Shown one piece after another: positions 5,343 to 57,553 of a stretch of 64,000 nt of DNA; the stretch's first letter is position 1, and every line of letters begins with the position of its first letter. The notes beneath the pieces are model-generated. The model did not search any database. It saw nothing but the letters and a program-made list of their open reading frames with translations, and had not been told where the DNA came from. The position numbers and the translations under genes are program-made. Origin of the DNA: Bacilli bacterium (GTDB lineage: Bacteria; Bacillota_I; Bacilli_A; RF39; UBA660); the NCBI GenBank assembly GCA_016283935.1, contig JAEENX010000007.1, forward strand, positions 13,123 to 77,122, written 5' to 3'.

Positions 5343-6731
5343 TTAGTTATCAGTTGATCTACCATTATACCAAATTGCTTTATATTTGTTTCCAGTACAA
5401 ACTTGATGAGTACTAGTTGTCGAAGCAAATGCCATGTCGGCTGGATATACTGGATTTAGTTCTTCTTGTTCATCTACATCTACACAATTAGTAAATCCAA
5501 CTAATCCATCTTGATCATTTGAATATATTAAATTACTGATTTTTTCATTGATAACTTCACTTGTTACAACATTAGCTCCACTTGGACAACTTCCTTCATA
5601 ATACACTTCTTCTGGATCAGGTCCATGTTCAACAGTATACTCAACTTTATTTCTTAAATCTTTTGAAAGAGTAACATATGCATCATCATATTCACCAATA
5701 GGTATTAGCATATATCTTTCAATTAAATCCAAATATTTTCCATCTTCTAATGAATAATAATGTGGCATTATATCGTCTTTTGTAACAGTTTTAATTAATT
5801 TAGTTTTATTTTCATCAGAATATACTTTTATATATGAATTATCATTAAAAACTGGTTCTATAGTACCGTGATTTTCATATGATAGTATTAAATATAAGTA
5901 TGTATAATCACTTGGAACACGTGCATCACGACTAGTTCCTCTTCTTGATGGAGATCCTTCAAAATAAAATCTAGGTCCCTTACATGTTAGTTTTTCTGAT
6001 GCAACTATTTCATTTGCACCTACACATATTTCTCTAACATCTGATCCTTCTTCAAAAGATCCAATATCAGTAGTTAATTTATATTTACATCCTTCAACAG
6101 TAACTGTTGAATTAATTTTTAAATTACATTTACAAATAGCTTTTACTACTGTAGGTATTGTTATTACTAATGCTAAAATAACAGCAATTGTTTTAAATGA
6201 TGTTTTCTTTTTAGATATAAATAATACTACCAATGAAATTATTATCAATACAGGTAACATATATAATAACGATTTAACTCCTGTAGGTGGATTAACAATC
6301 TCACCACCTGTTAAATCCAAATCAAATGAGTTAGTTTCATTGAATTTATCAACAGTTGGATTCTTAGTTAAAGATATAACTAATGTTAAATCTCTGGCAG
6401 CTCCTGCTTTTACCATTTTATCATCTGTTTCAAAAGTATATTTAACATTTGTATACTTTTTATTAAACATTGATTCATCTAAAACGTAATCTACATCAGT
6501 ATTATTTTTAATTGTAGTTTTATATTTAATATAATCATCTACTCTTGTAAATGATACATCTAAATCTATAACTGTTCCATTTACTTTTGCAGCACTTAAT
6601 TCGGCAGCTCCAGCAGCTTTTTCAATCATTTCAATTGATTGAACAGTAACTCCTTCTGCATTACATGTTTCCGCAAATACATTGATTGGAATTAAAATTA
6701 TACTTAAAAATAAAATTAAAATTTTTTTCAT
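5343..6731 (-). CDS. Surface protein paralog B: same architecture with internal NPPTG, diverged C-domain
   Basis: About 85% identical to paralog A over the first ~230 aa (IVNPPTGVKSLLYMLPVLIIISLVVLFISKKK...), then divergent. The upstream intergenic sequence is also duplicated. Confidence 0.7.
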   Translation of the reverse strand: MKKILILFLSIILIPINVFAETCNAEGVTVQSIEMIEKAAGAAELSAAKVNGTVIDLDVSFTRVDDYIKYKTTIKNNTDVDYVLDESMFNKKYTNVKYTFETDDKMVKAGAARDLTLVISLTKNPTVDKFNETNSFDLDLTGGEIVNPPTGVKSLLYMLPVLIIISLVVLFISKKKTSFKTIAVILALVITIPTVVKAICKCNLKINSTVTVEGCKYKLTTDIGSFEEGSDVREICVGANEIVASEKLTCKGPRFYFEGSPSRRGTSRDARVPSDYTYLYLILSYENHGTIEPVFNDNSYIKVYSDENKTKLIKTVTKDDIMPHYYSLEDGKYLDLIERYMLIPIGEYDDAYVTLSKDLRNKVEYTVEHGPDPEEVYYEGSCPSGANVVTSEVINEKISNLIYSNDQDGLVGFTNCVDVDEQEELNPVYPADMAFASTTSTHQVCTGNKYKAIWYNGRSTDN

Positions 6732-6850: not shown

Positions 6851-9382
6851 TTATTTTGTTAATAAAGCTAATTGTTCTTCTTCCTTAGCTAATGTTTCTC
6901 TTTCTTTATTAACTAATGCTTCAGGAGCTTTAGCAACATAGTTTTCATTAGCAAGTAAGTTCTTTCTTCTAGCAATAGAAGCTTTTAAATCATTTATTTG
7001 TTTTTCTTTTAAAGCTTTATCTTCTTCAGTTTCTTCTTTTTCATAGAAGATAGTTGCTTCATAAGAACCTGATTTAACATCATATGATTTAATATCTTCT
7101 GGTTCATTTATCATTACATCTTGTAATTTTAACATCTTAATAATTATTTCATCATTTGTATTAATTATTACTTTAGCATCTTTAGGAATATTATTTTCTG
7201 TTTTAACATTTCTAAATGCTTTAATAAATTCAATCTTTTCTTCTACTACTTTAGTAGTTTCTTTATCAACAAATGATTTATCATACTTAGGATATTCAGA
7301 AATCATAATTGATTCAGCATCTTTAATTGGTAACATTTGATAAATTTCTTCAGTTACAAATGGCATAAATGGATGTAATAATTTTAATATACCAGTTAAT
7401 ACATAACATAATACTGATTTAGTTGTATTTGATTCAGAATTGAATTTAGCAAATTCAATATAATTAGAACAGAAATCATCATATATGAAACTATATGTTT
7501 CAGTTCCAAATAAGTTAAATTCATATTTATCCATATGAGCTATAGAACTCTTAACTATCTTTTCATATTTAGTTAATATCCATTTATCTTCATCAGTTAA
7601 ATTATCGAATGTTAATTCTTTTAATCCTTCAATGTTCATTAAAACAAATCTAGAAGCATTCCAAATCTTATTAATATAATTCCATGTAGATGTTAATTTA
7701 GTTTCATCAAATCTTAAATCTGTACCAAATGCTACATCAGTATTTAAGTAATATCTAAGTGCATCTACACCATACTTATCAATCATATCAAATGGATCAA
7801 CACCATTACCTAAAGACTTAGACATCTTTCTTCCTTCTTTATCTCTTATAAGACCATGAATGATACAATCTTTAAATGGTCTAACACCATTTAATTCTTC
7901 TGATTGGAACATCATTCTTGCTACCCAGAAGAAAATAATATCATATGCTGTTACTAAACAGTCATTTGGATAGAATCTTTCTAAATCTTCAGTTTTATCT
8001 GGCCAACCTAATGTTGAGAATGGCCATAAAGCAGATGAGAACCAAGTATCAAGTACATCTTCATCTTGTTTCCATCCTTCTCCTTCAGGAGCTTCCATTC
8101 CTACATAGATTTCTCCATCTTTATACCAAGCAGGTATTCTATGTCCCCACCATAATTGACGAGAAATACACCAATCATGACAATCAGTCATCCATGATTT
8201 TAATAAGTTTTCAAATCTATCTGGTACAAAGTTTACTTTATTATCTTTTTCAGTTTGAATCTTTAATAATTGTTCAGCTAAACCATCCATCTTAACAAAC
8301 CATTGTTCTTTGATCATTGGTTCAACCATAACACCTGTACGTTCAGAATGTCCTACTTCATGAACTAATGGTTCAATTTCTAATAATAGATCAGCAGCTT
8401 TTAAATCTTCTAATACCGCTTCTCTTGCATCTTCTCTTGTCATACCAACATATTTAGCAGGACAATTTTCATTCATTGTTGCATCATCATTCATGATACA
8501 AATTCTTTCAAGATTATGTCTATTACCTACCTCAAAGTCATTAGGATCATGAGCTGGAGTAATCTTAACTACACCAGTACCTTTTTCCATATCAGCATGT
8601 TCATCAGCAATAATAGGAATACTCTTATTCATAAATGGTAATTCAACAGTCATACCAATATATTTTTTATATCTTTCATCATCTTTATTAACAGCTACTG
8701 CAGTATCACCAAATAATGTTTCAGGTCTTGTAGTAGCAACATCTAAATATTCTTCAGTTCCTGTAATTTTATATTTTAAATGATAGAAAGCACTCTTTTC
8801 TTCTGAATAAATAACTTCTTCATTAGATAAAGCTGTTTTAGCAGCTGGATCCCAGTTAATTATTTTTTCACCACGATAAATTAAACCTTTATTATAGTAA
8901 TCAACAAATACTTTAGTAACTGCTTTATTTAAACCTTCATCTAAAGTAAATCTTTCTTTATTATAATCTACTGAAATACCCATAGCAGCCCATTGATCAC
9001 GAATTGTTCCACCATATTCATGAGTCCAATCCCAACAAGCATCTAAGAATTTTTCTCTACCATATTCATATTTATTGATACCTTGATCTTTTAATCTCTT
9101 AACTACTTTAGCTTCAGTAGCTATAGCAGCATGATCCATTCCTGGTAACCATAAAGTATCAAATCCTTGCATTCTTTTATATCTAATAATTGCATCTTGA
9201 ATTGATACATTATAAGCATGTCCTATATGTAACTTACCAGTTACATTAGGAGGTGGAATAACTATACTATATGGTTGTTTAGTTTTATCTCCTGAATTAA
9301 AATATCCTTTTTCTTTCCAATCATTATATTTATTTTCTTCTACTTTAATATGATCATATTTAGTATCTAACATATTAATCAC
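6851..9382 (-). CDS. valS: Valyl-tRNA synthetase
   Basis: 843 aa. HIGH motif (PNVTGKLHIGHAYN), KMSKS (RKMSKSLGN), C-terminal coiled coil. Confidence 0.95.
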   Translation of the reverse strand: MINMLDTKYDHIKVEENKYNDWKEKGYFNSGDKTKQPYSIVIPPPNVTGKLHIGHAYNVSIQDAIIRYKRMQGFDTLWLPGMDHAAIATEAKVVKRLKDQGINKYEYGREKFLDACWDWTHEYGGTIRDQWAAMGISVDYNKERFTLDEGLNKAVTKVFVDYYNKGLIYRGEKIINWDPAAKTALSNEEVIYSEEKSAFYHLKYKITGTEEYLDVATTRPETLFGDTAVAVNKDDERYKKYIGMTVELPFMNKSIPIIADEHADMEKGTGVVKITPAHDPNDFEVGNRHNLERICIMNDDATMNENCPAKYVGMTREDAREAVLEDLKAADLLLEIEPLVHEVGHSERTGVMVEPMIKEQWFVKMDGLAEQLLKIQTEKDNKVNFVPDRFENLLKSWMTDCHDWCISRQLWWGHRIPAWYKDGEIYVGMEAPEGEGWKQDEDVLDTWFSSALWPFSTLGWPDKTEDLERFYPNDCLVTAYDIIFFWVARMMFQSEELNGVRPFKDCIIHGLIRDKEGRKMSKSLGNGVDPFDMIDKYGVDALRYYLNTDVAFGTDLRFDETKLTSTWNYINKIWNASRFVLMNIEGLKELTFDNLTDEDKWILTKYEKIVKSSIAHMDKYEFNLFGTETYSFIYDDFCSNYIEFAKFNSESNTTKSVLCYVLTGILKLLHPFMPFVTEEIYQMLPIKDAESIMISEYPKYDKSFVDKETTKVVEEKIEFIKAFRNVKTENNIPKDAKVIINTNDEIIIKMLKLQDVMINEPEDIKSYDVKSGSYEATIFYEKEETEEDKALKEKQINDLKASIARRKNLLANENYVAKAPEALVNKERETLAKEEEQLALLTK

Positions 9383-10085
9383 TTATCCTTTCATCTATAT
9401 ACTTATTACAAATATCTTTTATTTGTTTTATTCTTTCATCATCAAATTTATTTAATATTAAATTACATTTATAATTTGCTAAATCTAAATCTTTTAATAT
9501 TTTTAAAGACTCTTTATACTTCATATCAAACATAAATGCTAATGCTCTTAAAACATGATATCCTTGAGAACTCCATGCTTCTGCATTATTCTTTAACATT
9601 CTATGATTTTCAAAACTATCTAATACTTCATCAGGAAGTATTAATTCATTATCTTCAAAGACTCGATCTAAAAATATCATTATATCTAATTTATCAGCAT
9701 CTCGAGTAATATTAACAAACATCTTTGTTCTTTCATCTAAATCATCTGGTAATTTATATTTATTATGTAACTTAGTAGATATTAATATTATTTCATCATT
9801 TATACCTAATTCTTTAAGAATTTCACATCCTTTGTCACCATGATCAAATGATACAGAATCATCAAATGTTTTATATTCTTGCCATTGTTTAAATCTAGAA
9901 ATATCATGGAATAAAGCACACTTGCATGCTAATTCATAATCATCATCATTTAAATTTAAACTTTTAGCAATTCTTTTCGCATACTCAACCACTCGAAGAG
10001 TATGATCATATTTTCTTTGAACACCTGATAAACTACTATCAAAATTTAAATAGTAATTGTTGAATATTTTAAGTGCTTCTTCCAT
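9375..10085 (-). CDS. HD-domain phosphohydrolase, overlapping valS by 8 nt
   Basis: LFHDISRF and HGDKGCE motifs typical of an HD domain; its stop overlaps the valS start, so they form an operon. Confidence 0.65.
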   Translation of the reverse strand: MEEALKIFNNYYLNFDSSLSGVQRKYDHTLRVVEYAKRIAKSLNLNDDDYELACKCALFHDISRFKQWQEYKTFDDSVSFDHGDKGCEILKELGINDEIILISTKLHNKYKLPDDLDERTKMFVNITRDADKLDIMIFLDRVFEDNELILPDEVLDSFENHRMLKNNAEAWSSQGYHVLRALAFMFDMKYKESLKILKDLDLANYKCNLILNKFDDERIKQIKDICNKYIDERISD

Positions 10086-10088
10086 ACA

Positions 10089-10345
10089 TATCTCCTTTCT
10101 AAAAATAAAAAAGATCTAATCATCATAAAGACGATTAGATCGTGGTACCACTTTAATTACTTCTCAAATACGTAACGTGTATTAAACGTTTAATCTTACT
10201 AATATTTCAGATTAACGACTCCCAAGCTACCTTCAATTATCTTTCTTAAGAATGTCTCTCAGTCGGTGAACATTCATTCCTGTTAAGTAGTTTTAATTTA
10301 CTCCTCTTGTTCCATGTCTTTTTCAAAACTAATATGATTATATAT
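10089..10345 (-). promoter_or_regulatory. T-box leader controlling the HD-gene/valS operon
   Basis: Minus-strand RNA contains AAUUAAAGUGGUACCACGAUC, a near-consensus T-box. It overlaps a terminator GAUCUAAUCGUC-UUUAU-GAUGAUUAGAUC plus UUUUUUAUUUUU (10100-10141). An alternative antiterminator AUUAAAG[UGGUACC]ACGAU..AUCGU CUUUAU is possible. Stem I has CUGAGAGAC. Candidate -10 is cATATATAATc at about 10337. Confidence 0.65.
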
Positions 10346-45249: not shown

Positions 45250-46095
45250 TCACTTAAAATATAATACTCTTTTTCCCAATTGATTATATTTATCAATTAA
45301 ATTATCCTTATCTGAATATCGTATCATTCCAGTATATGGATCAGAAAATACTGCATATTTTTTATCAGTTGCAATTAATACCATTGCATGTTCATATGTT
45401 TGCCAATATATATCTTGGTCTGTTCCACATTCTTTTCCTAATAAAATATTTTCTGTATTATGTAAATTAATAGTTGCCCAAATAATAACTGGAGTTCCTG
45501 AATTAACTATCTTTTCTACTTCTTTAAAATCTAAACCTGTTTTGGATATTGCTCCTTTTTTATAATTATCAGCAACCTTTTTAATTGGATCATTATAAAC
45601 TCCTCTTGAATCTTCTAAGATTCTAGGATTTCCTATAAATACTTTTTCAGGATTATTAAAACACTCTTCTCCATTAGAATCTATTTCTTTAACTGGTTTA
45701 ATATCTAATTTATCTATTAAATCGTCCGGATTAGTATTTATACCATAATAATTTAATAATATATGTAATGCTATTATTTCACATCCAGTTGGATATAAAG
45801 GATTTTGATTATATGTTGGAAAGTTAATATTTTTTTCATATATACTTGGTCTAGTTGTAGTTGTTGTCGCTGTTGTTGTCTTTTTCTTAGTTGTTGTAAT
45901 CTTTGTTGTTTGTTTAACTGTAGTAGTTTCTTCAACAGTTGTAGTAATAACACTAGTGTTTGTTTCAACATATTCTGTAGTTGGTTCTGTTGTTTTATTA
46001 TCTTTTTGTTCAATATAATCATTTGTTACTACTACACATCCTGTAAGTAAAATAGCACATGTTAATATAACTACTATCTTTTTCATATAACTCAC
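45250..46095 (-). CDS. Lipoprotein with a C39-like (papain-fold) putative cysteine-peptidase domain
   Basis: Lipobox LLTGC, Thr-rich linker, YPTGCEIIALHILLNYYGI (Cys) and YEHAMVLI (His), as in the Peptidase_C39-like family. Confidence 0.45.
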   Translation of the reverse strand: MSYMKKIVVILTCAILLTGCVVVTNDYIEQKDNKTTEPTTEYVETNTSVITTTVEETTTVKQTTKITTTKKKTTTATTTTTRPSIYEKNINFPTYNQNPLYPTGCEIIALHILLNYYGINTNPDDLIDKLDIKPVKEIDSNGEECFNNPEKVFIGNPRILEDSRGVYNDPIKKVADNYKKGAISKTGLDFKEVEKIVNSGTPVIIWATINLHNTENILLGKECGTDQDIYWQTYEHAMVLIATDKKYAVFSDPYTGMIRYSDKDNLIDKYNQLGKRVLYFK

Positions 46096-46138
46096 CTATT
46101 TCAATTATAACACTTAAAAAAGGAGATATTTATCTCCT

Positions 46139-47716
46139 TTACAATAATGTTTCTTTAGGTAGTAAAGTATGATCTTTTATAAAATATGTTTTCTTACATA
46201 TAGTTGTAAAAATTGGTCTATGAGAAACAATTATAAATGCTTGTTTCTTAAAATACTTTTTAATCATATTTGCTACTAGTTTTTCCGATTCAATATTCAT
46301 TCCATTTGATGGATCATCTAATAAGTATAATGTTTTATTTGAAACAATACATCTTATTATATTTATTTTACCTATAATATCATCATTTATTATTACATAC
46401 TTTTCATCTATATAAGTATCTAATCCTTTAGCTAATGAATTATACCAATCCATTAAACCTATTTCTTTAATTAGACTTATTAAATCTTCATCAGTATAAA
46501 TATTACCTAAACATAGATTATCTCTTAAACTTATTTTTAATGTTTTAACTTCCTTAGAAATATACATATGCTCTGGATATCTTATATCTACCGTACCATC
46601 ATAGAAAATATTACCAGATTCAAATTTATATATACCAGCTAATACATTTAATAATGTACTCTTACCTTCTCCTGATTTACCAATGATACCACATGCATCA
46701 CCTTTTACTAATTCAAATTCAGGTATCTTTATAGTTTTATTTGTATCTAAATATCTATATACACCATCTTTAATATTAATCTTTTTCCAATCAGAAAAAT
46801 AAGATAATTCTTCTCTTTCTTTAAAATAAGAATCTAATTCTTTTAAATTATTTACAGTAGTAATAATATTACTAATTGTTGGATTAACCATATATAATAA
46901 TTTCTTTAATTTTAACATTACGACTATTATAGAAATCATTAATCCAAATGCTGTCATAATATTACTTACAATTAATAATGTTGCAACTATTAATACAAAT
47001 AAATAACCAACTAATATATTTGAGAATGTTAAATCGTTATATAAAACTGCTCCATTATCTTTTAAAATAACAATATCATTTTCTTTATTATCATTTAATT
47101 TTTTATAACAAAAATCAAATATATTTAATTTTCTAATAGTTTCTATTTTTAATATATAATCTTTAAATAAATCATTATAATTAGTATTATTTAATTTTTC
47201 ATGATAAGCAGGATTATTATATCTACTTACTAATAAAGCAACTAAACAAATAAAAGATAAGATACCTAATATAAAACTTACTTTATTAATAAAATGAAAT
47301 AATATAATAGTACCAATTATACATGGAATAATATATTCTATAATATCTGATATTATTTTAGTTATGTTATAAGATACTTCTAAAGATTTATTTGCAAATG
47401 CTTCCTTATCTAAATTTTCTATATTAGATGATTTAATTATTTTAGTTTTTTCAAATATATTTAATTCTATATTATGTTTAATATTATGATATGCATCATT
47501 TACAACCTTTTTATATAAGAATTTAAATCCTGTTCTAATAACATATATTATAGCTAAAACTAATAATAAACTTATAAGTTTTCCTTTAGTTAAATCTGTC
47601 TTAATAAAAAAACTAGTTACAATTGCAAATAAGAACCAATTGAAATAAATAGCAGCTCGATATATAGCTGTTTCTATTACCAACGATGTATTGATATTCT
47701 TAAAAATTTCTTTCAT
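46139..47716 (-). CDS. Fused TMD-NBD ABC-type exporter with degenerate ATPase motifs
   Basis: Walker A GIIGKSGEGKST is intact. The signature is replaced by INDDIIGKINIIR, and Walker B reads LYLLDDPSNG with no catalytic Glu. Confidence 0.55.
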   Translation of the reverse strand: MKEIFKNINTSLVIETAIYRAAIYFNWFLFAIVTSFFIKTDLTKGKLISLLLVLAIIYVIRTGFKFLYKKVVNDAYHNIKHNIELNIFEKTKIIKSSNIENLDKEAFANKSLEVSYNITKIISDIIEYIIPCIIGTIILFHFINKVSFILGILSFICLVALLVSRYNNPAYHEKLNNTNYNDLFKDYILKIETIRKLNIFDFCYKKLNDNKENDIVILKDNGAVLYNDLTFSNILVGYLFVLIVATLLIVSNIMTAFGLMISIIVVMLKLKKLLYMVNPTISNIITTVNNLKELDSYFKEREELSYFSDWKKINIKDGVYRYLDTNKTIKIPEFELVKGDACGIIGKSGEGKSTLLNVLAGIYKFESGNIFYDGTVDIRYPEHMYISKEVKTLKISLRDNLCLGNIYTDEDLISLIKEIGLMDWYNSLAKGLDTYIDEKYVIINDDIIGKINIIRCIVSNKTLYLLDDPSNGMNIESEKLVANMIKKYFKKQAFIIVSHRPIFTTICKKTYFIKDHTLLPKETLL

Positions 47717-47763
47717 ACATATAACTCCTATACTGTAATAATATTATACAATATTATATTTTT

Positions 47764-48660
47764 TTAATCTATACTTATATCCTTACAGATACATTCTTTA
47801 TAATCTCTTATTTTATATAAACTATCTATTCTTTCACCTATTATAGTAGTTGAATAAATATACATAGCAGCTGCTTTTAAATGAGCTAAACTAATTACTT
47901 TGTCATCTATATCTTTTCCTATTATTACTTTAAGAAATTCAGCTATATATAAATCTAATGAACCACGCATATTTTCTTTATATATTCTTCCTTCTATTTC
48001 TTTTTCTTCTATAGTATCTAAATAGATAATATCAAAGTCTTTTACTGTTTTAAAAGATATTAAAACACTGGCATTTATACTGGTTTTAAAATCAAATAAA
48101 TCAATTTTATATTTGTCTTTAATAAAAGCATTAACTTTATTACCCAAGCATAATAATAAACATCTATCTTTTAATAATTCTATTAATTCATTTAAACTAA
48201 ATCTTTTAATATAATTAATATCATTTAAATATAATACTATTTTATTATTAGTATTATTAATAATATCTAGATCTAATTCTTCTAAAGAATCTATTACGAA
48301 TATATCATCATCAGATGTTTTAGATATTACATCTTTATATGAAACATATGCATCTGAATAACCACGCATACGATCACAGTAAGGACAAACTCTAGTACTT
48401 CTTTTATCTAAATAAAAAATAGTTTGAGTAGATTCATTAATTCTTTTAATATCTCCAATATCTACATTTTTATTATTTAAAGATAGTAATGCAATTTCAC
48501 CTTGTTTATCATTACCTACTACACCTATAAATTTAGTTTTAAATGTATCTGCAACATTATAAAGAATATTAGAATTACTCTTTCCACCAGATATATATTC
48601 TAATAAATTATTTTTAAAATAATAGTTTGTATATAAATCACCATATGCAATTAATTTCAT
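47764..48660 (-). CDS. Hypothetical protein with a weak ribokinase/pfkB-like N-terminus and a CPYC zinc-ribbon insert
   Basis: LIAYGDL...GGKSNSNILYN pattern; the C-terminal pfkB motif is absent. Confidence 0.3.
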   Translation of the reverse strand: MKLIAYGDLYTNYYFKNNLLEYISGGKSNSNILYNVADTFKTKFIGVVGNDKQGEIALLSLNNKNVDIGDIKRINESTQTIFYLDKRSTRVCPYCDRMRGYSDAYVSYKDVISKTSDDDIFVIDSLEELDLDIINNTNNKIVLYLNDINYIKRFSLNELIELLKDRCLLLCLGNKVNAFIKDKYKIDLFDFKTSINASVLISFKTVKDFDIIYLDTIEEKEIEGRIYKENMRGSLDLYIAEFLKVIIGKDIDDKVISLAHLKAAAMYIYSTTIIGERIDSLYKIRDYKECICKDISID

Positions 48661-48704
48661 ATCTCATCACACATATATTATAGCATAAAAAAACTAGGTA
48701 TAAC

Positions 48705-50039
48705 CTAGTTTATTTGGAACATTTTAGTATATCTACCTTCACCTGAATATACATCAGTCATATCTTCAATATATTCATAATTAGTATATAATTTAGAACC
48801 CCTTTGTTTATAACTATATTTAACTGTTCTAACACCATATAGTAATGATTCTGCAATATATAAATATTCATCATCTTTACCAACAAGTAATGCTGTATGA
48901 CCATTTCTAGCTATTACATCGCCTATTTTATATTTATCTGAATTAGCATATTCATATGTTAAATCATGTCTTGGTCCTAAATCAGACATATCTCTAACAT
49001 CTTCTACTATTCCAGCACCAATGTCTCCTACATCAGTTCCACCATTCATAAGTGCCCATGTTACAAATCCTGAACAATCTAATCCATTAGGTTTTTTAGC
49101 TCCAACAGCCCAACCATCTGTATCATCATAATTTGTTAAAGGACATCCCCAAGTAGCTTTCTTTTCTTTAACATAGTCATCATTTATATTTTTATATCTT
49201 GATTCATTTAAATATAATCCTAAATGATGATATCTTCCTTCACCATCTACTTTTCTTTGACCTTCATAATAAGTATCCAATCTTCCATGTTCATAGAAAT
49301 AAGTTACTTTATATGGGAAAGATAAAGTTAAGAATCTAGCTGCAGCAATAGCACCACCTCTAGTACCACGTCCAGCATAATCTACTCTTTCTTTTAATAA
49401 TTCATCTAAATAATCATTTTGTTCTTCAGTATAAACATTACATGTTAATTTTTGTTTTCCTAAATCAAAGACTGGTTTAACAATCATATCAGTAACAGTA
49501 AATTTAGCTGTTTTAGTAATACCATTTGAAGTTTTTGCAGTAATTACTGCATCTCCTTCACTTACTCCATATACTATTCCATTTTCATCAACTGTTACTA
49601 TGCTATCATCACTTGATGAATAATTGATCTTTTTATCAGGTTCACCTATAAAATCAATTGTAGTATCTAACTCAAACTTCTCACCTATAGCAATATGAAA
49701 TGATTCTAAGTTTAAATCCATACTAATGATTTCATTAGCATCTACATTAAAATTGATTTCATCTTCCCTATTAAAGCTTTTAACTTTTAAAGTATAATCT
49801 CCATTTTCCAAATCAAATTTACAACTATTAGAACTAACTCCATTTACAGTACATTCAATTGGAAAAATATTTGGAACATTAACATTTATTGTAACATTTT
49901 TTGTTTTATTATCATTTACACCTACTGCATAAGTAATACTTTTTATACTAATAGGCAAGTTTAAATATCTATAAGTCACATAACATGTACATATAATTGT
50001 TATTATTAATAAAAATATAACTATAACCCTTTTTTTCAT
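48705..50039 (-). CDS. Big_2-domain NlpC/P60 cell-wall hydrolase (start placed at the second Met)
   Basis: Big_2 (IVTVDENGIVYGVSEGDAVITAKT), NlpC/P60 Cys (LDCSGFVTW) and His (GDVIARNGHTALLVG). The ATG at 50039 follows a hairpin; the track start at 50084 lies inside that hairpin. Confidence 0.65.
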   Translation of the reverse strand: MKKRVIVIFLLIITIICTCYVTYRYLNLPISIKSITYAVGVNDNKTKNVTINVNVPNIFPIECTVNGVSSNSCKFDLENGDYTLKVKSFNREDEINFNVDANEIISMDLNLESFHIAIGEKFELDTTIDFIGEPDKKINYSSSDDSIVTVDENGIVYGVSEGDAVITAKTSNGITKTAKFTVTDMIVKPVFDLGKQKLTCNVYTEEQNDYLDELLKERVDYAGRGTRGGAIAAARFLTLSFPYKVTYFYEHGRLDTYYEGQRKVDGEGRYHHLGLYLNESRYKNINDDYVKEKKATWGCPLTNYDDTDGWAVGAKKPNGLDCSGFVTWALMNGGTDVGDIGAGIVEDVRDMSDLGPRHDLTYEYANSDKYKIGDVIARNGHTALLVGKDDEYLYIAESLLYGVRTVKYSYKQRGSKLYTNYEYIEDMTDVYSGEGRYTKMFQIN

Positions 50040-50087
50040 ATAAATCACTACCAATAATTTAGCACATATAAATAGTTTATACAATAT

Positions 50088-50115
50088 AAAAAGAACTATA
50101 AAAATAGTTCTTTTT
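50088..50115 (-). terminator. Hairpin (attenuator-like) between the large SipW-cognate gene and the NlpC/P60 gene
   Basis: aaaaagaactat-aaaa-atagttcttttt. Confidence 0.4.
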
Positions 50116-51670
50116 AATCAAAACTTTCAGATACTTTTTTGACTGTGATATTAGTGAATATTTCATCTAAAGAAACCTCATTAGAATCGAAATCTAATAC
50201 TAATACACCATCATCTCTTGAATCAAATGTTTCACCTACAGCAATCGTATATGAATTAGGTGAATAATACTTATTTTCACTATTAGCTTTAATACTTGTA
50301 GTAGTTATTACACCTGTCATCCTATTTGGTAAATAACTTGCTTGAGCATCAATAGTTACTTTTGGATTTAATGTTAATTCAATAGTCCATTCATTAATAT
50401 CTTCATCAGTAGTATTTTCAATAGTAAATCCAAATCTATAATGTCTAGCCCATCCATTTATTTGTTTAACACTATATGAAACAGTTGGTTCAACTAAATC
50501 ACTTGGATCTACAGGTTCGTCTGGTTCATCAGGTTCATCAGGTTCATCTGGCTCTTCTGGTTCAGCTACTGGATCTCCTTGAGGAGCATAGTTAGTTGAA
50601 TCTGTTTCAATACCAATTGGTCCATTGTAAGTTACAAGAATTGGATCTTCTTGAGTACCACTTCCACCAGCATACATTACGTCTTCTTTTAAATACATTG
50701 TAGGTCTTACGCCATAAGCATAACTAGCTGCAAGCGCATATATATCACCTTGATACATAGTTACAACAGTATCAGCATAACTTGTAGAATATGCAGGACT
50801 AATAGTCCATTCACCATATTGAGTAGCTAACCATGAATTTTTATAACAATCATTACCCATAGCTAATTCATAACACGCATCATCGTCAACAGAATATCCA
50901 AAATCACTTGGATATGGTAAACCAACATAAGTTAATATTGAGGATGGTCTTGAACTATTATCATTACATCTATTATTAAACCAACTTGATCTACATCCTT
51001 TAGGTGATGCATTACCATTTTCAGATTGCATCAAGAATGCAGGAGTCATATAGCTTGGATTATTATCTATTGAATATGGATTAGTACTTCCTAAATTCCA
51101 ATATACTTTTTCAACCATACTAGCAGCTGTAACTGATAATCCTTTATAATCACATTGTTTAGAAGACATTCTACTACCAGTAATACATGTATAATGATTA
51201 TATTCATTATATGATTTATAGTAAAAATTCTTATACAAATAATTATATACTTGAGAAGTTGTAAAATCATTTGTACCATTTCCATTATTATAGTAATAAT
51301 TACTATTCCAAGCTAATCCTTCAACATAATCAGCTCTTGTAATCTTAGTTAATCTTTTTGTTGAATCTTGAGTAGCAACATCAAATGTACCAATTATTCT
51401 CCATAACTCTCCATTATATAAAATATAATTGTTAGGATTTGTTCCTACATATCTAGAAGCATTTCCAACACTTTTAACATCTAATTTTTTAGCTACTTGT
51501 GAGTCAACATACTCAGTTAAACTATTCTTTTTAAATGCTTTAATAACTGCTCCACCAGTTATCATTAATTCAGTATTAAAGGCAGCATAAGAAAAAGTCA
51601 CAACGGATATTGTGACAAAAAACGCGAACATAAAAATTGTATTTCTTATATGTCTGTTCAAAACATTCAC
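50114..51670 (-). CDS. Large secreted protein with a SipW-cognate/TasA-type signal and a (PDE)n repeat
   Basis: N-terminus ...TISVVTFSYAAFNTELMITGGAVIKA compared with the TasA ...TWAAFNDIKSK..ASGTLDL pattern; Y/N/S-rich with Cys pairs; EPEEPDEPDEPDEPDEP repeat. Confidence 0.5.
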   Translation of the reverse strand: MNVLNRHIRNTIFMFAFFVTISVVTFSYAAFNTELMITGGAVIKAFKKNSLTEYVDSQVAKKLDVKSVGNASRYVGTNPNNYILYNGELWRIIGTFDVATQDSTKRLTKITRADYVEGLAWNSNYYYNNGNGTNDFTTSQVYNYLYKNFYYKSYNEYNHYTCITGSRMSSKQCDYKGLSVTAASMVEKVYWNLGSTNPYSIDNNPSYMTPAFLMQSENGNASPKGCRSSWFNNRCNDNSSRPSSILTYVGLPYPSDFGYSVDDDACYELAMGNDCYKNSWLATQYGEWTISPAYSTSYADTVVTMYQGDIYALAASYAYGVRPTMYLKEDVMYAGGSGTQEDPILVTYNGPIGIETDSTNYAPQGDPVAEPEEPDEPDEPDEPDEPVDPSDLVEPTVSYSVKQINGWARHYRFGFTIENTTDEDINEWTIELTLNPKVTIDAQASYLPNRMTGVITTTSIKANSENKYYSPNSYTIAVGETFDSRDDGVLVLDFDSNEVSLDEIFTNITVKKVSESFD

Positions 51671-51673
51671 TTC

Positions 51674-52834
51674 CTATGCATGTCCATTTTGATCTACATA
51701 CCATCTTGTTATTCTATATTTATATAATGTATCTCCTTCAATTATAACAAAGAAACATTTTTGTCCAGGCATTACATTGTAATATAGAATTGGAGATCCT
51801 TCGTTAATAGAAGCATCAACTAATTGTTCAAATGTTTCAGGATATATGATATTAGTATATTTAGATTCATCTATATCTAATTTACCTCTAACTATTACTC
51901 TATCATAATCTTTTAATATTTTACTAACTAGAGATGTATATAAATCTTTAGTTTTAAATCTCTTATATTCTTTTATAAATCTTAAGAATAAATAGATTAC
52001 AACTTCAATTAATATAACAAATATAATAAACATTGGAATGCTTTTAATAGTAAACTTTTTAGTACTTATTAAGAAATCTTGTTTATTAATATTGTTTGAG
52101 TTTTTCTTTATTGAAGTAGTTGCATCTGTTAAAGGAATTTCAATTTCTTGAAGAATATCTCTTTCATATTTCTTATCCATTCCTTCTTTAGTACCTGTTA
52201 CATGAAGATTCATATAAACATATACTTTAGCAGTAGCAGCTATTCTTAAATCTTGTTTAAAATTATTTGCTTTATCTTTATATTTTTGGAAATCTATCGC
52301 TACAGATTCATTTATATTTATACTAGAACCTGTAAGTTTTTGTTTATCTTTAGCTAATTCTACTACATTATCTTCATCATTAGTTAAAGGAGTTTTTTCA
52401 TCAGTATAATCTAATACTACATATTTAGAAGCTATAGTATAACTATATTCTAAATCTAAAGTATCTGGTGAATGGAATTCATAACTAAATGTAGGATTAA
52501 CAGTTTCAATTAAACTAGATGGATAATTCATTCCTGAATTAAGAATAGTATCACTATAGTTTTCATTTTCTTTAATCTTTACTTTATAAGTTACGTTAGC
52601 CATTTCATTATATGATAAACCATCTACTATAGTATTAAATGAAATAGATCTCATAAATAGTGAAACAGTGATTAAAAGGACTACTATCAAAGGTAAAACT
52701 ACACATACAAAGAAACCTGTTGTTGAGTAAGCAGGTTTACCTTTTTTTGTAACTGTATATGAATTGTTTCTACTTTGATATTTCATCTCTTTAGTCATAT
52801 CAGCTATTTCTCCTTCACTAAGTCTCTTAGCCAA
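51674..52834 (-). CDS. Bitopic/2-TM protein with an internal SipW-cognate-like motif; overlaps the peptidase gene by 31 nt
   Basis: A 45-aa cytoplasmic N-tail, a TM, then LFMRSISFNTIVDGLS; a second TM near aa 265; a C-terminal cytoplasmic domain of about 95 aa. Confidence 0.45.
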   Translation of the reverse strand: MAKRLSEGEIADMTKEMKYQSRNNSYTVTKKGKPAYSTTGFFVCVVLPLIVVLLITVSLFMRSISFNTIVDGLSYNEMANVTYKVKIKENENYSDTILNSGMNYPSSLIETVNPTFSYEFHSPDTLDLEYSYTIASKYVVLDYTDEKTPLTNDEDNVVELAKDKQKLTGSSININESVAIDFQKYKDKANNFKQDLRIAATAKVYVYMNLHVTGTKEGMDKKYERDILQEIEIPLTDATTSIKKNSNNINKQDFLISTKKFTIKSIPMFIIFVILIEVVIYLFLRFIKEYKRFKTKDLYTSLVSKILKDYDRVIVRGKLDIDESKYTNIIYPETFEQLVDASINEGSPILYYNVMPGQKCFFVIIEGDTLYKYRITRWYVDQNGHA

Positions 52835-53964
52835 ATAGAAGGTAACCCTAAATATGAAAATTTAAAATCAGTTTTACCCACTATTTCATTCTTAGTAACA
52901 AGCCAATCATCGACAGCTTGTCCATCTCTATCACCTTTTGTGATAAATGATTTTTCTCCGTTATTTTCAATAACTTCGATAATTCTATGAGTATAGTATT
53001 TACCAGATATATTAAATACAATAACATCTCCATTATTTAATTCATTATATCTTGTACTATAACTCTTATCTACAACAATTAAATCTCCGATTTTAATTGT
53101 AGGATCCATAGATCCAGATCCAACAACACAAACCCAAAATCTAAATATATTACTATTTAAACATACCATTGCAATTACTATAATAAATAATATTACACCA
53201 GTAATTTTTGTAACAATATGTTTATTTCTAATATCTTCTTTATTCTTTTTATTCTTCTTAAATATATCTGGAACACCAATATGCAATAATAACATTATTA
53301 TGATAGGAATTAACATATCAACTACTGTTTCAACATACTTTGAAAAACTTGGTATAATTGGTATTACATATCCATATAAATTAAATATACAACTATATAT
53401 TAAAGCAGTCTTTAATCCATGTTTATATGAAATAACAGTTAATCCTATATTCATAAATAAACATTGCATGAATGTTGTAGTAAACAATTTTAAAAATGGT
53501 TCCAAACTTCTTATATCTACGAAGCTATTTCTTGTAGCAAAATCTACAAATGTAAATAATAGTATATTTGCTACCAATATAAATCTATTACATCCACTTC
53601 TTTGATTAATAGTAAATCTACAAAACTCTTCCAATACTATTATTACTAATACTGGAACAACATTTTTAACTATATCAAAGAATTTCAAACTATATGGATT
53701 ATTATAAAATCCTGTAATTAAACCCAAAGAATATTTTAATACTAGAAAGGCAATTGAATAAAATAAACATAATTTCATTGATTGCTTTCCTGTAAATAAA
53801 TTATCTCTTGGAATACTACATGCTATTGCAAGTGAAGTAAGTAATACCATTAAAAATATGATAATACCAAATTCACCTAAAAACTCATGCATTATTGAAT
53901 TAAATAAAAGAATAATTAATGATAATATTTGAATAAAGAATATTTTTCTTTCACCACTTCTCAT
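52804..53964 (-). CDS. 8-TM polytopic domain fused to an ER/archaeal-type (S26B, SipW/Sec11-like) signal peptidase I
   Basis: C-terminal domain has box B VVGSGSMDPTIKIGDLIVV, box C GDVIVFN, box D YTHRII and box E FITKGDRDGQAVDD. It is preceded by eight predicted TM helices with polar intramembrane residues (LEEFCRF, NQRSGCNRF, LLLHIGVPD). Confidence 0.8.
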   Translation of the reverse strand: MRSGERKIFFIQILSLIILLFNSIMHEFLGEFGIIIFLMVLLTSLAIACSIPRDNLFTGKQSMKLCLFYSIAFLVLKYSLGLITGFYNNPYSLKFFDIVKNVVPVLVIIVLEEFCRFTINQRSGCNRFILVANILLFTFVDFATRNSFVDIRSLEPFLKLFTTTFMQCLFMNIGLTVISYKHGLKTALIYSCIFNLYGYVIPIIPSFSKYVETVVDMLIPIIIMLLLHIGVPDIFKKNKKNKEDIRNKHIVTKITGVILFIIVIAMVCLNSNIFRFWVCVVGSGSMDPTIKIGDLIVVDKSYSTRYNELNNGDVIVFNISGKYYTHRIIEVIENNGEKSFITKGDRDGQAVDDWLVTKNEIVGKTDFKFSYLGLPSIWLRDLVKEK

Positions 53965-53987
53965 ATAATCACCCTTTTAATAAAAAT

Positions 53988-54011
53988 AGGTATAACTACA
54001 GAGTTATACCT
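53988..54011 (-). terminator. Intrinsic terminator between the small TasA-like gene and the peptidase gene
   Basis: AGGUAUAACU-cugu-AGUUAUACCU (10-bp stem) followed by AUUUUUAUU. Confidence 0.6.
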
Positions 54012-54031
54012 AATTTCTTTATATAATTAAA

Positions 54032-54652
54032 TTAAGCTTGTCCGTATACTAAAACTGTATCAGAAATTGCTACTGTAACATCTCCAGCTGGTAAATCGTT
54101 AGGATCATTAGTTTCTCTGTATTTAACAGTGATTTTTAATGTCTTAGATCCTGGAGTGTTTAATGATAGTTTAGGTAATACTTCATCAACTAAAATGTCA
54201 GATCCGTCAACATAAGTAGTTGTAACTGTAACTGCGTTTTCCATTTTTTCTTCATCAGCAGCAGCTGCAGTAGGATCAGTTAAGTTACTAGTATATCCAG
54301 TTACTTTTGCTAAAGTAGCACTAGATAATTTAGCATCATAAGTACCCCAGTTTTCAACAGGTACTGTAAATGTAACTTCATCACCAGGAGTTTTTAAAGC
54401 AACATTGAATCCAGTGATAACTGTTTTAGTATCATCTAGTTTTGGTCCACTACCAAAGATTGCAGCAGTTCCAGTTGTTTCAACTTCTCCTATTTCTCCA
54501 AAGTGTACATCCCATTTAGATGCTTCAATTTTTGCTCCAGATGAGATAACTAAAGTTTGTGAAAAAGATGCCCAAACGATAGATACAAATCCGAATACAG
54601 CAGCGATTGCAACGATTGCAACCATTAATGAATTAAATTTTTCTTGTTTCAT
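54032..54652 (-). CDS. Small secreted TasA/camelysin-like protein with a SipW-cognate signal (candidate major fibre subunit)
   Basis: ...AVFGFVSIVWASFSQTLVISSGAKIEA N-terminus; beta-rich 206 aa. GC is about 35% by hand count over two 100-nt stretches. It has its own promoter and terminator. Confidence 0.55.
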   Translation of the reverse strand: MKQEKFNSLMVAIVAIAAVFGFVSIVWASFSQTLVISSGAKIEASKWDVHFGEIGEVETTGTAAIFGSGPKLDDTKTVITGFNVALKTPGDEVTFTVPVENWGTYDAKLSSATLAKVTGYTSNLTDPTAAAADEEKMENAVTVTTTYVDGSDILVDEVLPKLSLNTPGSKTLKITVKYRETNDPNDLPAGDVTVAISDTVLVYGQA

Positions 54653-54705
54653 TTCTTTTCTCCTCTTTCTTTTTTTACAATAGACTTCCCTCTATCTTTA
54701 AATAA

Positions 54706-54714
54706 ATTATACCA
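54706..54714 (-). promoter_or_regulatory. Extended -10 (TGgTATAAT) promoter for the TasA-like gene
   Basis: Minus-strand aaatgGTATAATtt about 45 nt upstream of the ATG; the -35 is weak. Confidence 0.35.
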
Positions 54715-54785
54715 TTTAGTATTTAAACGTAAAATATAAATGTCAAAAAAAATATGTCACTTTACACAAATTATTAACATAAAAA

Positions 54786-55591: not shown

Positions 55592-56476
55592 TTAACCTAC
55601 CTTCTTACTTCTTTGAATATTTGAATCATATCCATTTAATATTATTAATTTAGGTAATTTACTCCAATTATTAAATACTCTTACTTGAACTTTCTTAAGT
55701 CTATTTGAATTATAGAAATCTTTAACTTCATCATCATCTATTTTCTTAGCTCTAGATGTAGCTTTACTTCTAGTAAATAATGGTTCTTCTTTTAATATAG
55801 TACGAGTTACATATATTAAATTTTCTGTTAATAAGTCAGGATTTTTAATATCCTGTCTCAATTTACTATCTTCTCTACTCTTATTAATAATAATAGCACT
55901 TGCAAACCATTCTTGTAATTTACCACTTGTTTTTACTATGCGATCATATTGGTCTTTAGTTAGATATTCACTTCTTAATTTAAGTTCATGATAATCTCTT
56001 TCATTTTTATCTTCTAAAGCACGATATATTTGTAAAACTTCTTTATCATTCATATATATAGTTGCATATGCAATTAACATAGGAATTTCTCTATTATCTA
56101 AATCATCAAATCTTATAACATTGTTAGTTAATATTTCATGTTTAACTGTTTCATTTATCTTACTCTTAATCTTAGCAGTATTAACTACTGTATCAATTTC
56201 ATAAGGTATAGCATCTTTTATATCGAATAAACTCTTATATTCATATGGCATCTTTCTTTCAATAGATACACATATATCTCTTTGTTCTTCTTTAGAAATA
56301 TTTCTATAATAATTAAAGAATATATTATATGCGCTTTCATATAGTTTAATTGGATTAGCTAAATTAATATTAGCTATCAATCTTCTTGCATCTTTATATT
56401 CATCATTATTAGATTCCATATCATATGTTAATAATCTTCTATAAACTAAGTTATGAACATTTATTGCTAAATTCAT
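55592..56476 (-). CDS. Hypothetical protein (294 aa)
   Basis: ORF; 4 nt from the next gene. Confidence 0.4.
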   Translation of the reverse strand: MNLAINVHNLVYRRLLTYDMESNNDEYKDARRLIANINLANPIKLYESAYNIFFNYYRNISKEEQRDICVSIERKMPYEYKSLFDIKDAIPYEIDTVVNTAKIKSKINETVKHEILTNNVIRFDDLDNREIPMLIAYATIYMNDKEVLQIYRALEDKNERDYHELKLRSEYLTKDQYDRIVKTSGKLQEWFASAIIINKSREDSKLRQDIKNPDLLTENLIYVTRTILKEEPLFTRSKATSRAKKIDDDEVKDFYNSNRLKKVQVRVFNNWSKLPKLIILNGYDSNIQRSKKVG

Positions 56477-56590
56477 AAGTGTTTCAACATCAATATATTT
56501 ATTTTCTTCAACACTTTTTATAATACAAGATGTTTCAATTATGTTTTCAATAGTATCAAGATTATAATAAGCAGATGTATAACTTCTTAA

Positions 56591-57553
56591 TTAAGGGAAT
56601 AAATCTCTTAATTCTTGTCTATCTTCATATGGAATTGAATGTTCTTCATTTATAATTCTATATTTTCTATTTATATAATCTTCTATACCATTTATAACTT
56701 CTTCTTTAGTTCTAGAAGATTTCTTTTCTTCTGATAAATATGTTCTAGATAAAATATCATCCATGATATCATTTACAGATTTTAAACTTTCTTCTATAGG
56801 TTCTTCCTTAGGAATAACAGGTATAATATCATCTGTATTAATAACAGGAAGTGTTCTAGTATCTAAAAGTTTATCCATTTCTTCTTCAGTTGGTAATACT
56901 AAAGTTTCTGTATTTTCTTTAATATCATAGTCTAATCCAGGAACTTCTATATCTTGAGTTTTTTCAACAATTGGTTCTTGAACCTTAGGCTCAACAACCT
57001 TTGTTTCAACAACTTTTGGTTCTTCTTTTTTCTTTTCTGCTTTTTTAACTTCTACTTTAACTTTAACCTTAACTTGTTTAGGTTCTTCTTTCTTAACTTC
57101 TACCTTCTTATTTCTATTAGCAGCATTTACTTTACTAATTTGTTCTTCTATAGTTAAGAAATCTTTTAAACATCTTTCAGCAGTCTTAACTTTATCAGAG
57201 CCATCTCTTTTAATATAACTAATATATGTATCTCTAAATTTCTTATCTTTAGATATATTAACGGCATTAACGAGTTTACTCTTTTCAACAATGTTTAATA
57301 CTTGTTTATTTTCTATATCACTTAACATAGCTAACATAATATAAGCTAAATCAGCTTTCTTTTTATGTGTATTAGCTAGTTTTAATTTTAAATAAAATTT
57401 CTTTAATCTATCTTGTTGTTTAGGTTTATCTTTATAATCAATGATACCTAAAACTACTTCAAAAATTGATAAACAAGCATTACTATTTGAGTTTAAAATG
57501 TCGATATCATTCATATAAAGTTCTCCTTCCCGATTATATTTAAATTTTACCAA
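56591..57553 (-). CDS. Hypothetical protein with a Lys/Glu/Val-rich KVEVKK repeat
   Basis: KKVEVKKEEPKQVKVKVKVEVKKAEKKKEEPKVVETKVVEPKVQEP low-complexity repeat. Confidence 0.4.
   Translation of the reverse strand: MVKFKYNREGELYMNDIDILNSNSNACLSIFEVVLGIIDYKDKPKQQDRLKKFYLKLKLANTHKKKADLAYIMLAMLSDIENKQVLNIVEKSKLVNAVNISKDKKFRDTYISYIKRDGSDKVKTAERCLKDFLTIEEQISKVNAANRNKKVEVKKEEPKQVKVKVKVEVKKAEKKKEEPKVVETKVVEPKVQEPIVEKTQDIEVPGLDYDIKENTETLVLPTEEEMDKLLDTRTLPVINTDDIIPVIPKEEPIEESLKSVNDIMDDILSRTYLSEEKKSSRTKEEVINGIEDYINRKYRIINEEHSIPYEDRQELRDLFP

Follow-up and report, generated by a model that had tools for sequence, protein, structure and literature searches.

A probable AbpX-type fibre cassette with a fused signal peptidase in an uncultured lineage of gut Bacilli

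The stretch of DNA examined here, 64 kb in length with 26% G+C and called the window throughout, comes from an uncultured gut bacterium of the Bacilli and carries five consecutive genes, A to E, on its minus strand. Genes A to D probably make up an AbpX-type fibre cassette, belonging to the TasA superfamily, in a low-GC lineage of gut Bacilli; A would supply the major subunit, B a fused signal peptidase, C a DUF5305 family accessory protein and D a tip or nucleator. The locus is a gut bacterium's version of a gene set described recently, real and not unprecedented; a preprint of January 2026 already outlines this type of cassette (bioRxiv 10.64898/2026.01.04.697558). An earlier note on this DNA had proposed a fibre locus, surface or extracellular, served by a SipW-type peptidase of its own and by cognate signals, and that core idea is supported by the homology of A to AbpX, by conserved synteny and by a shared signal motif. 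The same note compared the locus with the Bacillus subtilis tapA-sipW-tasA organisation and listed differences from it; the locus is not a rearranged form of that operon and matches the AbpX-type cassette of the preprint. Its order and coordinates for the five same-strand genes agree with the list of open reading frames (ORFs). The features of the locus, in positions of the window and with protein lengths in amino acids (aa), are as follows.

54706..54733, minus strand: promoter-like site of gene A (TTTACG, 16-nucleotide (nt) spacer, TG-extended TATAAT), a candidate promoter found by consensus scan
54032..54652, minus strand: gene A, 206 aa, putative major fibre subunit
53987..54012, minus strand: A-B hairpin, 11 bp with the tail TTTTTATT, intrinsic-terminator-like
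52804..53964, minus strand: gene B, 386 aa, fused peptidase
53245..53964, minus strand: N-terminal domain of B (residues 1-240), eight transmembrane (TM) helices, CPBP/CAAX-protease-like fold
52804..53244, minus strand: C-terminal part of B (residues 241-386), a TM helix, an archaeal or endoplasmic reticulum (ER)-type signal peptidase I domain and a short C-terminal helix
51674..52798, minus strand: gene C, 374 aa from its probable start, DUF5305 family
51674-52834, minus strand: longest ORF of gene C, 386 aa
50114..51670, minus strand: gene D, 518 aa, putative tip or nucleator
50090..50113, minus strand: D-E hairpin, weak (10 bp, 2 G-C pairs, T-run), read directly from the sequence
48705..50039, minus strand: gene E, about 444 aa from its probable ATG, Big_2 protein anchored in the membrane, putative cysteine peptidase domain of NlpC/P60 type
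48705-50084, minus strand: longest ORF of gene E, 459 aa, TTG start
48691..48711, minus strand: terminator-like hairpin after gene E, T-run

Gene A is assigned, from profile comparison, as a putative major fibre subunit of the AbpX family. A profile built from 36 diverse A-like proteins and searched against the PDB hit AbpX chain 9sj2_C with an E-value of 2.7e-8 and chain 9rhp_A with 5.3e-7; the 9sj2_C match pairs profile positions 35-189 with residues 5-153 of the chain and covers almost all of the mature domain. A profile restricted to Bacilli, compared with AbpX by hhalign, gave a probability of 83% (E=8.6e-6, 94 core columns), and hmmsearch of the PDB with the Bacilli-only profile or one of close homologues found nothing; the sequence similarity of AbpX itself to the A protein of the window is remote. 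In its AF2 model (pLDDT 82.7) A folds as a beta-sandwich, residues 1-32 of the monomer being disordered, and the predicted layout is an N-terminal donor strand followed by that sandwich. When the model was searched against the PDB with Foldseek, the top match was the TasA fibre, 8aur_A (E=1.9e-3, TM-score 0.34), and the Tafi pilin 9p0a_C was also among the matches. Direct alignment of the A family to TasA by hhalign covers the signal region alone, with a probability of 13%. Mature A has an isoelectric point of 4.34 and 14% Asp plus Glu, as expected of the AbpX type, for which the corresponding values are about 4 and about 15%. Neither A nor D has a match in Pfam or NCBIfam.

The motif [YWC]-A-[AST]-[FYWL]-[STN]-x-x-[LM]-x-[IV]-x-G stands right after the hydrophobic core in nearly all A-like and D-like proteins, and it was found in ~60 proteins from ~30 loci, always beside a fused peptidase. 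Among all ORFs of at least 60 aa in the window it occurs in A (VWA/SFSQTLVISSGA, the slash marking the predicted cut) and D (SYA/AFNTELMITGGA) only. Because its T-L aligns with residues 5-6 of mature AbpX, the cut is placed at VWA/SFSQTL in A (A28/S29, with residues 1-28 as signal peptide) and at SYA/AFNTEL in D. With these sites, at which we infer cleavage, the mature proteins would begin S-F-S-Q-T-L-V-I-S and A-F-N-T-E-L-M-I-T, both with an aromatic residue at mature position 2. Position 4 is Q, T or S in most Bacilli homologues and E in the archaeal proteins of locus L003. The earlier note had aligned three N-termini to a shared motif and counted three cognate proteins; the motif stands for A and D and is missing from C, which leaves two.

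Across 19 homologues of A, residues 1-22 do not vary, although the mature parts of these proteins are only ~50% identical. Codons of the signal peptide past the first eight show synonymous changes, and an invariant peptide behind changing codons indicates selection on the signal peptide as protein. Sec signals are seldom so invariant, and a dedicated peptidase that recognises the peptide would be consistent with it. The model for SipW-cognate signals, TIGR04088, which the earlier note had proposed as a check on its three proteins, matches none of A, C and D even at E<=10 and even with isolated N-termini, whereas TasA of B. subtilis, run as a control, scores 38 bits against the cut-off of 19. 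A small archaeal protein (L030:6397-6924) encoded directly upstream of a B homologue does pass, at 24.6 bits. Judged by these sequences, the cassette signals are related to the SipW-cognate class, with the Bacilli versions falling outside the TIGR04088 model. A rabbit-gut Bacilli locus (L015:6827-10094) has five additional paralogues in tandem whose N-terminus is TasA-like (TYAWLTVT...NVIKTGTLEL); the A-family profile recognises them and TIGR04088 does not.

Gene order is conserved well beyond the window. Loci of this kind, about 27 in number, were found in metagenome-assembled genomes of gut Bacilli, Erysipelotrichaceae and Clostridia and on two Archaeoglobaceae-like archaeal contigs, with the profile scan of genome contigs made using 12 closer sequences. 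In all of them one to three A-like genes are followed by B and then by a DUF5305 gene, and often another A-like gene, or one for a large D-like protein, comes next. Within the close clade (L005, L045 and L046), identity to the window is about 50% for A, 53-57% for D, 66-69% for B, 68% for C, 76-78% for E and 85-87% for the next gene downstream; the lowest values belong to A and D, making the fibre proteins the fastest-evolving genes here. Co-conservation across relatives, as the earlier note had asked of the genes, is found for A, B and C throughout, and for E in the closest clade only. In loci L007, L012-L017, L021 and L022 (for example L013:10994-12280) a further conserved secreted protein of ~230-565 aa is encoded downstream of the DUF5305 gene; its N-terminus reads ...SVYAATT..DVIYDNSSSGGSS.NVQGSIDELY, it is absent from the window, and it has no annotation.

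The C-terminal third of B scores 75.5 bits against TIGR02228 (cut-off 51.85), the model for signal peptidase I of the ER/archaeal type, and the peptidase fusion read earlier from the sequence is upheld, with an S26 domain of SipW/archaeal type at its C-terminus. B is not a SipW equivalog by model NF046067, which gives it 64.7 bits against a cut-off of 190. Residues S285, H326, D345 and D352 are invariant in 37 homologues, and we take their spacing to mirror that of the catalytic residues of yeast Sec11. The AF2 model of B has 8 + 1 TM helices plus the short C-terminal helix, the first eight forming the fold of CPBP, or type II CAAX, proteases. The family conserves E113-x-x-R116 (EEFCR116), F137-x-x-x-D141 (F137TFVD141) and N172, with no conserved His, and departs from the CPBP catalytic motifs EExxxR, FxxxH and HxxxD/N; the correspondence of motifs to helices is putative. 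This membrane domain is probably, as modelled, a degenerate and non-catalytic CPBP domain.

The fusion is widespread. A word-indexed search returned ~87 clusters of full-length B homologues, and a profile of the membrane domain alone found 1,403 clusters (50% identity, E<=1e-10) among 1.84 billion representatives, nearly all of them 365-400 aa long and hence fused. The AbpX preprint notes "ten transmembrane helices" in the peptidase and does not mention CPBP, CAAX or Rce1, and a full-text literature search for signal peptidase, CPBP and TasA found nothing; the CPBP-like fold of the cassette peptidase appears to be undescribed in the literature searched. One fused-peptidase homologue, P0237 (474 aa), ends in a type I dockerin. 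Another protein, P0185 (812 aa), considered as a peptidase-DUF5305 fusion, was set aside: what it joins to the membrane domain are 5'-nucleotidase and calcineurin-like phosphoesterase domains, and it is probably a chimera or unrelated. About 2 kb downstream of an archaeal cassette (L003:11503-12201, minus strand) an Rce1-like (PF02517) gene stands on its own, a curious find given the CPBP-like fold of B.

A parallel for the membrane domain exists in Staphylococcus aureus, where SpbR, a degenerate CAAX-like protein whose motif 2 reads FIYLD, binds and regulates the signal peptidase SpsB (PMC12260438), and where the CPBP-fold protein SpdC stands alongside the wall hydrolase SagB (PDB 6u0o). In both pairs a CPBP fold with degenerate motifs accompanies its partner enzyme, and the motif-2 remnant FxxxD of B resembles the FIYLD of SpbR. 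The likeness is structural only: SpbR and SpsB are separate proteins whereas B is a single polypeptide, and SpsB is a bacterial P-type (Ser-Lys) peptidase whereas that of B is of the ER/archaeal (Ser-His) type. By analogy, B may be the fused form of an SpbR-SpsB-like partnership.

Gene C lies directly downstream of B, as its homologues always do in related loci. Its product is 34% identical (BLASTP 7e-60) to a neighbour of the B homologue in L001 that is annotated PF17231/DUF5305, orthologues at 68% identity carry the same annotation, and 21 of the 26 members of the C family match PF17231; C of the window itself has no PF17231 match at E<0.1 and no other Pfam match. The two TM segments claimed earlier for C were found, at residues 41-59 and 266-284, giving a predicted topology of TM helix, extracellular domain, TM helix and cytoplasmic domain. 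The N-terminus of C lacks the motif, as does the C-family consensus; it is a signal-anchor helix, the first TM helix of a DUF5305 protein. From sequence and gene order, C is a putative accessory subunit of the peptidase, a role we infer, and not a third substrate.

Gene D carries the cognate signal and the donor-strand motif without an A-like subunit sandwich. Its conserved central domain (about residues 70-343, weakly DUF6273-like) is followed by a Pro/Glu/Asp linker and by a CBM2-like C-terminal domain, for which the similarity to CBM_2 is weak; Pfam and PDB searches with D, like those with the C family, gave no informative domain. The central domain shares 31% identity with the C-terminal part of a 483-aa protein of L001 whose N-terminal part is A-like. 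Elsewhere it follows other N-termini: in P0146 a type IV pilin N_methyl signal, in P0147 and P0148 Peptidase_M73 (TasA-type) regions. Standing behind such varied filament-entry modules, it looks like cargo that several kinds of filament display. With a donor strand and no acceptor groove, a protein can occupy one end only of a donor-strand polymer, and D would by analogy be a tip or nucleator, functionally comparable to TapA.

The closest known systems share some features with the locus and differ from it in others. AbpX loci occur in archaea, Bacillota and Chloroflexota and comprise a ten-TM TIGR02228 peptidase, DUF5305, AbpX-like minor subunits and tip proteins; their DUF5305 has an extracellular beta-sandwich, two TM helices and, in the cytoplasm, an alpha/beta domain, and among bacterial examples anchors of SLH or LPXTG type, sortases and genes for signalling (cyclic di-GMP (c-di-GMP), two-component) are frequent additions (bioRxiv 10.64898/2026.01.04.697558). 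With AbpX of Pyrodictium abyssi (PDB 9sj2, 9rhp) and its loci the window shares a small acidic subunit of ~200 aa whose amphipathic donor strand has an aromatic residue at mature position 2, a neighbouring peptidase of about ten TM helices, an adjacent DUF5305 protein of the same topology, and an additional tip or minor protein with the same strand. It differs in having Q (A) and T (D) where AbpX has an acidic mature position 4, and in having no anchors, sortase or c-di-GMP/two-component regulators at the locus. The tip-like protein offers the donor strand only, followed by DUF6273-like and CBM2-like domains; a Big_2/NlpC-P60-like gene is the neighbour; and the host belongs to an uncultured gut Bacilli lineage that is not represented in RefSeq.

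The accessory protein TapA of B. subtilis can reportedly use its N-terminal strand to nucleate the TasA fibre. The tapA-sipW-tasA operon shares with the window a putative role of this kind for an accessory strand protein, a donor-strand subunit with a WA/AF-type cleavage region and a dedicated ER/archaeal-type peptidase; it differs in gene order, and the window peptidase has eight additional, CPBP-like TM helices, a DUF5305 protein is present, and there is no TapA homologue. The haloarchaeal Tafi system (TafA/E, TafD, TafG; PMC11821415, PMC12337348) likewise combines a donor-strand fibre, a dedicated peptidase with DUF5305, and tip or anchor proteins. There the signal peptidase TafD has been found experimentally to be required for subunit processing, and TafG is the DUF5305 protein (PMC11821415). 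Tafi subunits use Tat signals, whereas no Tat motif is found at the window locus, and TafD has four TM helices and a C-terminal Ig-like domain where B has its N-terminal CPBP-like domain.

The promoter of its own that the earlier note gave to gene A was recovered as the TG-extended -10 site at 54733-54706, with an additional TTGACA box at 54746 just upstream. In four relatives this putative promoter and the 5' untranslated region of ~50 nt (window 54653-54760, minus strand) are near-invariant while the coding sequence diverges. A small hairpin in the untranslated region, AUAGA-GGGAAG-UCUAU, is weak (-4.7 kcal/mol, z=-1.9), and an Rfam scan of the locus found no known RNA. T-run hairpins are present after A (54012-53987) and after E (48711-48691), where terminators had been proposed. 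The first is conserved in the close clade, and roughly half of the related loci have unrelated T-run hairpins at the same position. Only ~22 nt separate it from the start codon of B, leaving no room for a promoter, so that expression of B to D would depend on read-through or on promoters within A. The hairpin is probably a leaky terminator or attenuator, and the earlier suggestion that it serves to over-produce the major subunit is plausible on this layout.

Gene starts needed adjustment in two places. An overlap of 31 nt between B and C, reported earlier, is an artefact of taking the longest ORF as gene C; in relatives C begins at the counterpart of M13 (ATG 52798), 5-6 nt past the stop of B, which removes the overlap. 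Gene E probably starts at ATG 50039 (M16) and not at TTG 50084, judging by orthologues that begin at M16.

Taken together, these components suggest a mechanism. A, as major subunit, and D, as tip or nucleator, would be exported by Sec with their unusually conserved signal peptide, and B, through its Ser-His-Asp peptidase, would cut after [YW]-A to expose an amphipathic N-terminal strand. This strand would enter the open beta-sandwich of the next subunit by donor-strand complementation, giving a chaperone-free polymer of A; D, bringing a strand and no acceptor sandwich, would cap or nucleate one end and display its central and CBM2-like domains. The degenerate CPBP domain of B would most likely bind or gate the signal peptide, or scaffold a complex with C, and the leaky terminator after A would keep the subunit in excess over B, C and D.

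A broader reading takes all five genes as one unit, with E as an integral hydrolase that opens the peptidoglycan for the fibre and C as a third, C-terminally anchored substrate. In its favour, E has its strand in common with the cassette, only a hairpin separates it from D, and a good terminator follows it; the D-E hairpin reported earlier does exist, as a structure too weak to reach the G-C criterion of the hairpin scan. In L005, L045 and L046 E is kept beside D, and the CPBP-fold protein SpdC partners a hydrolase with a single TM segment, SagB (6u0o; bioRxiv 10.1101/2020.05.21.109470), just as E has a single N-terminal TM segment. Against this, synteny in that clade extends equally to the surrounding housekeeping genes (eno, pta and others), so that the linkage of E carries little weight, and E-like genes are absent from the other, more distant loci, which number over 20. 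Genes downstream of the cassette there are not hydrolase-like, and a general link between cassette and hydrolase is rejected. E is also more conserved than A and D. Of the NlpC/P60-Big_2 hydrolase named earlier, the Big_2 part is clear (E=1e-7), while PF00877 NLPC_P60 gives 20.9 bits (E=3.6e-4) against a gathering cut-off of 23; the best NlpC/P60 match by sequence in the PDB is weak (E=0.18), and DCSGF and GHTALL motifs are readable in the sequence. For C, a substrate role is opposed by its missing motif and by the literature, which reads DUF5305 as a peptidase accessory with both TM helices retained. We consider the five-gene unit unlikely. Membership of E in the system is uncertain; it is a clade-specific neighbour that may or may not aid wall crossing.

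Directly downstream of E (window 45250-48660, minus strand) lie genes for a weakly PfkB-like 298-aa protein, a 525-aa ABC exporter and a Thr-rich Peptidase_C39_2 lipoprotein; these look like a separate export and processing module, the first gene of which is syntenic with the cassette in close relatives.

Also unlikely is that A is a monomeric secreted or wall-associated protein, such as an adhesin, a matrix protein or a camelysin-like protein, merely in need of a dedicated peptidase, and that D is an independent glycan-binding protein. The structural matches of A are indeed weak and include many non-filament Ig-like domains, and neither the acidic residue at +4 nor a recognisable anchoring or assembly factor is present. 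But AbpX, a homologue of the A family, has a solved fibril structure; in A as in D the amphipathic strand motif coincides exactly with the predicted start of the mature protein; the central domain of D recurs behind pilin and TasA-type N-termini; and tandem A-like paralogues occur in these loci, as expected of major and minor subunits.

We give slight credence to a more ambitious version, in which B would be a self-contained assembly platform: the CPBP domain would read the invariant signal peptide and hand subunits to the Ser-His site, as a covalent counterpart of SpbR-SpsB, and by analogy with SpdC-SagB it would also dock the putative single-TM hydrolase E, so that the wall would be cut exactly where the fibre exits. 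If true, gut Bacilli would possess a sortase-free and chaperone-free pilus machine coupling secretion, processing and wall opening. That A and D are ordinary Sec substrates beside a housekeeping signal peptidase, with the motif arising by chance, could appeal to the failure of TIGR04088, yet it is scarcely credible and effectively refuted by synteny, given the recurrence of the motif beside the fused peptidase, its restriction to two ORFs in the window, a signal peptide more conserved than mature A, and a syntenic archaeal member that passes the same model.

Several observations weigh against the reading of A to D as an AbpX-type fibre cassette. The acidic residue at mature position 4, which the preprint connects with Ca-mediated complementation of the strand, is missing (Q32 in A, T in D). 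TIGR04088 and PF12389 give no score on A, and NF046066 and the camelysin models give none either. The earlier statement that the locus has no sortase holds for the whole window: among all its ORFs of at least 80 aa there is no TLxTC sortase signature and no genuine C-terminal LPXTG signal, and no SLH, LPXTG or sortase anchor that would keep the fibre on the cell was found. None of the bacterial AbpX-type cassettes, those of the uncultured low-GC Bacilli common in animal guts included, has yet been the subject of experiments. Lastly, the CPBP similarity of B comes from the AF2 model and lacks support at the sequence level: PF02517 at E<=1 matches 0 of 20 B N-domains, and a profile of the N-domain finds no CPBP chain in the PDB.

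Elsewhere in the window, a gene of 620-635 aa, uninterrupted in L005, L045 and L046, is broken at 55592-57553 (minus strand) by one in-frame stop (LFPELRSY in L005, LFP*LRSY here) into ORFs 56591-57553 and 55592-56476; it has no family match, and the split could be a nonsense mutation, a sequencing error or the mark of a pseudogene. A T-box leader (Rfam RF00230, 98.1 bits) at 10124-10323 (minus strand) precedes ORFs of 236 aa (9375-10085) and 843 aa (6851-9382), and tandem, nearly identical 462-aa paralogues with signal peptides (MKKILI.FLSI.LIPINVFAETCN...) occupy 3805-5193 and 5343-6731 (minus strand).

TasA-superfamily fibres are now recognised as a cross-domain way to build biofilm matrices. 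A fast-diverging subunit behind an invariant signal peptide offers a clean case of substrate selection by a dedicated peptidase. The CPBP fold of the eight extra helices links the ten-TM peptidase of AbpX systems with the finding that a degenerate CAAX-like protein regulates a signal peptidase in S. aureus. Both findings suggest a testable general rule: that CPBP-fold proteins partner signal peptidases.

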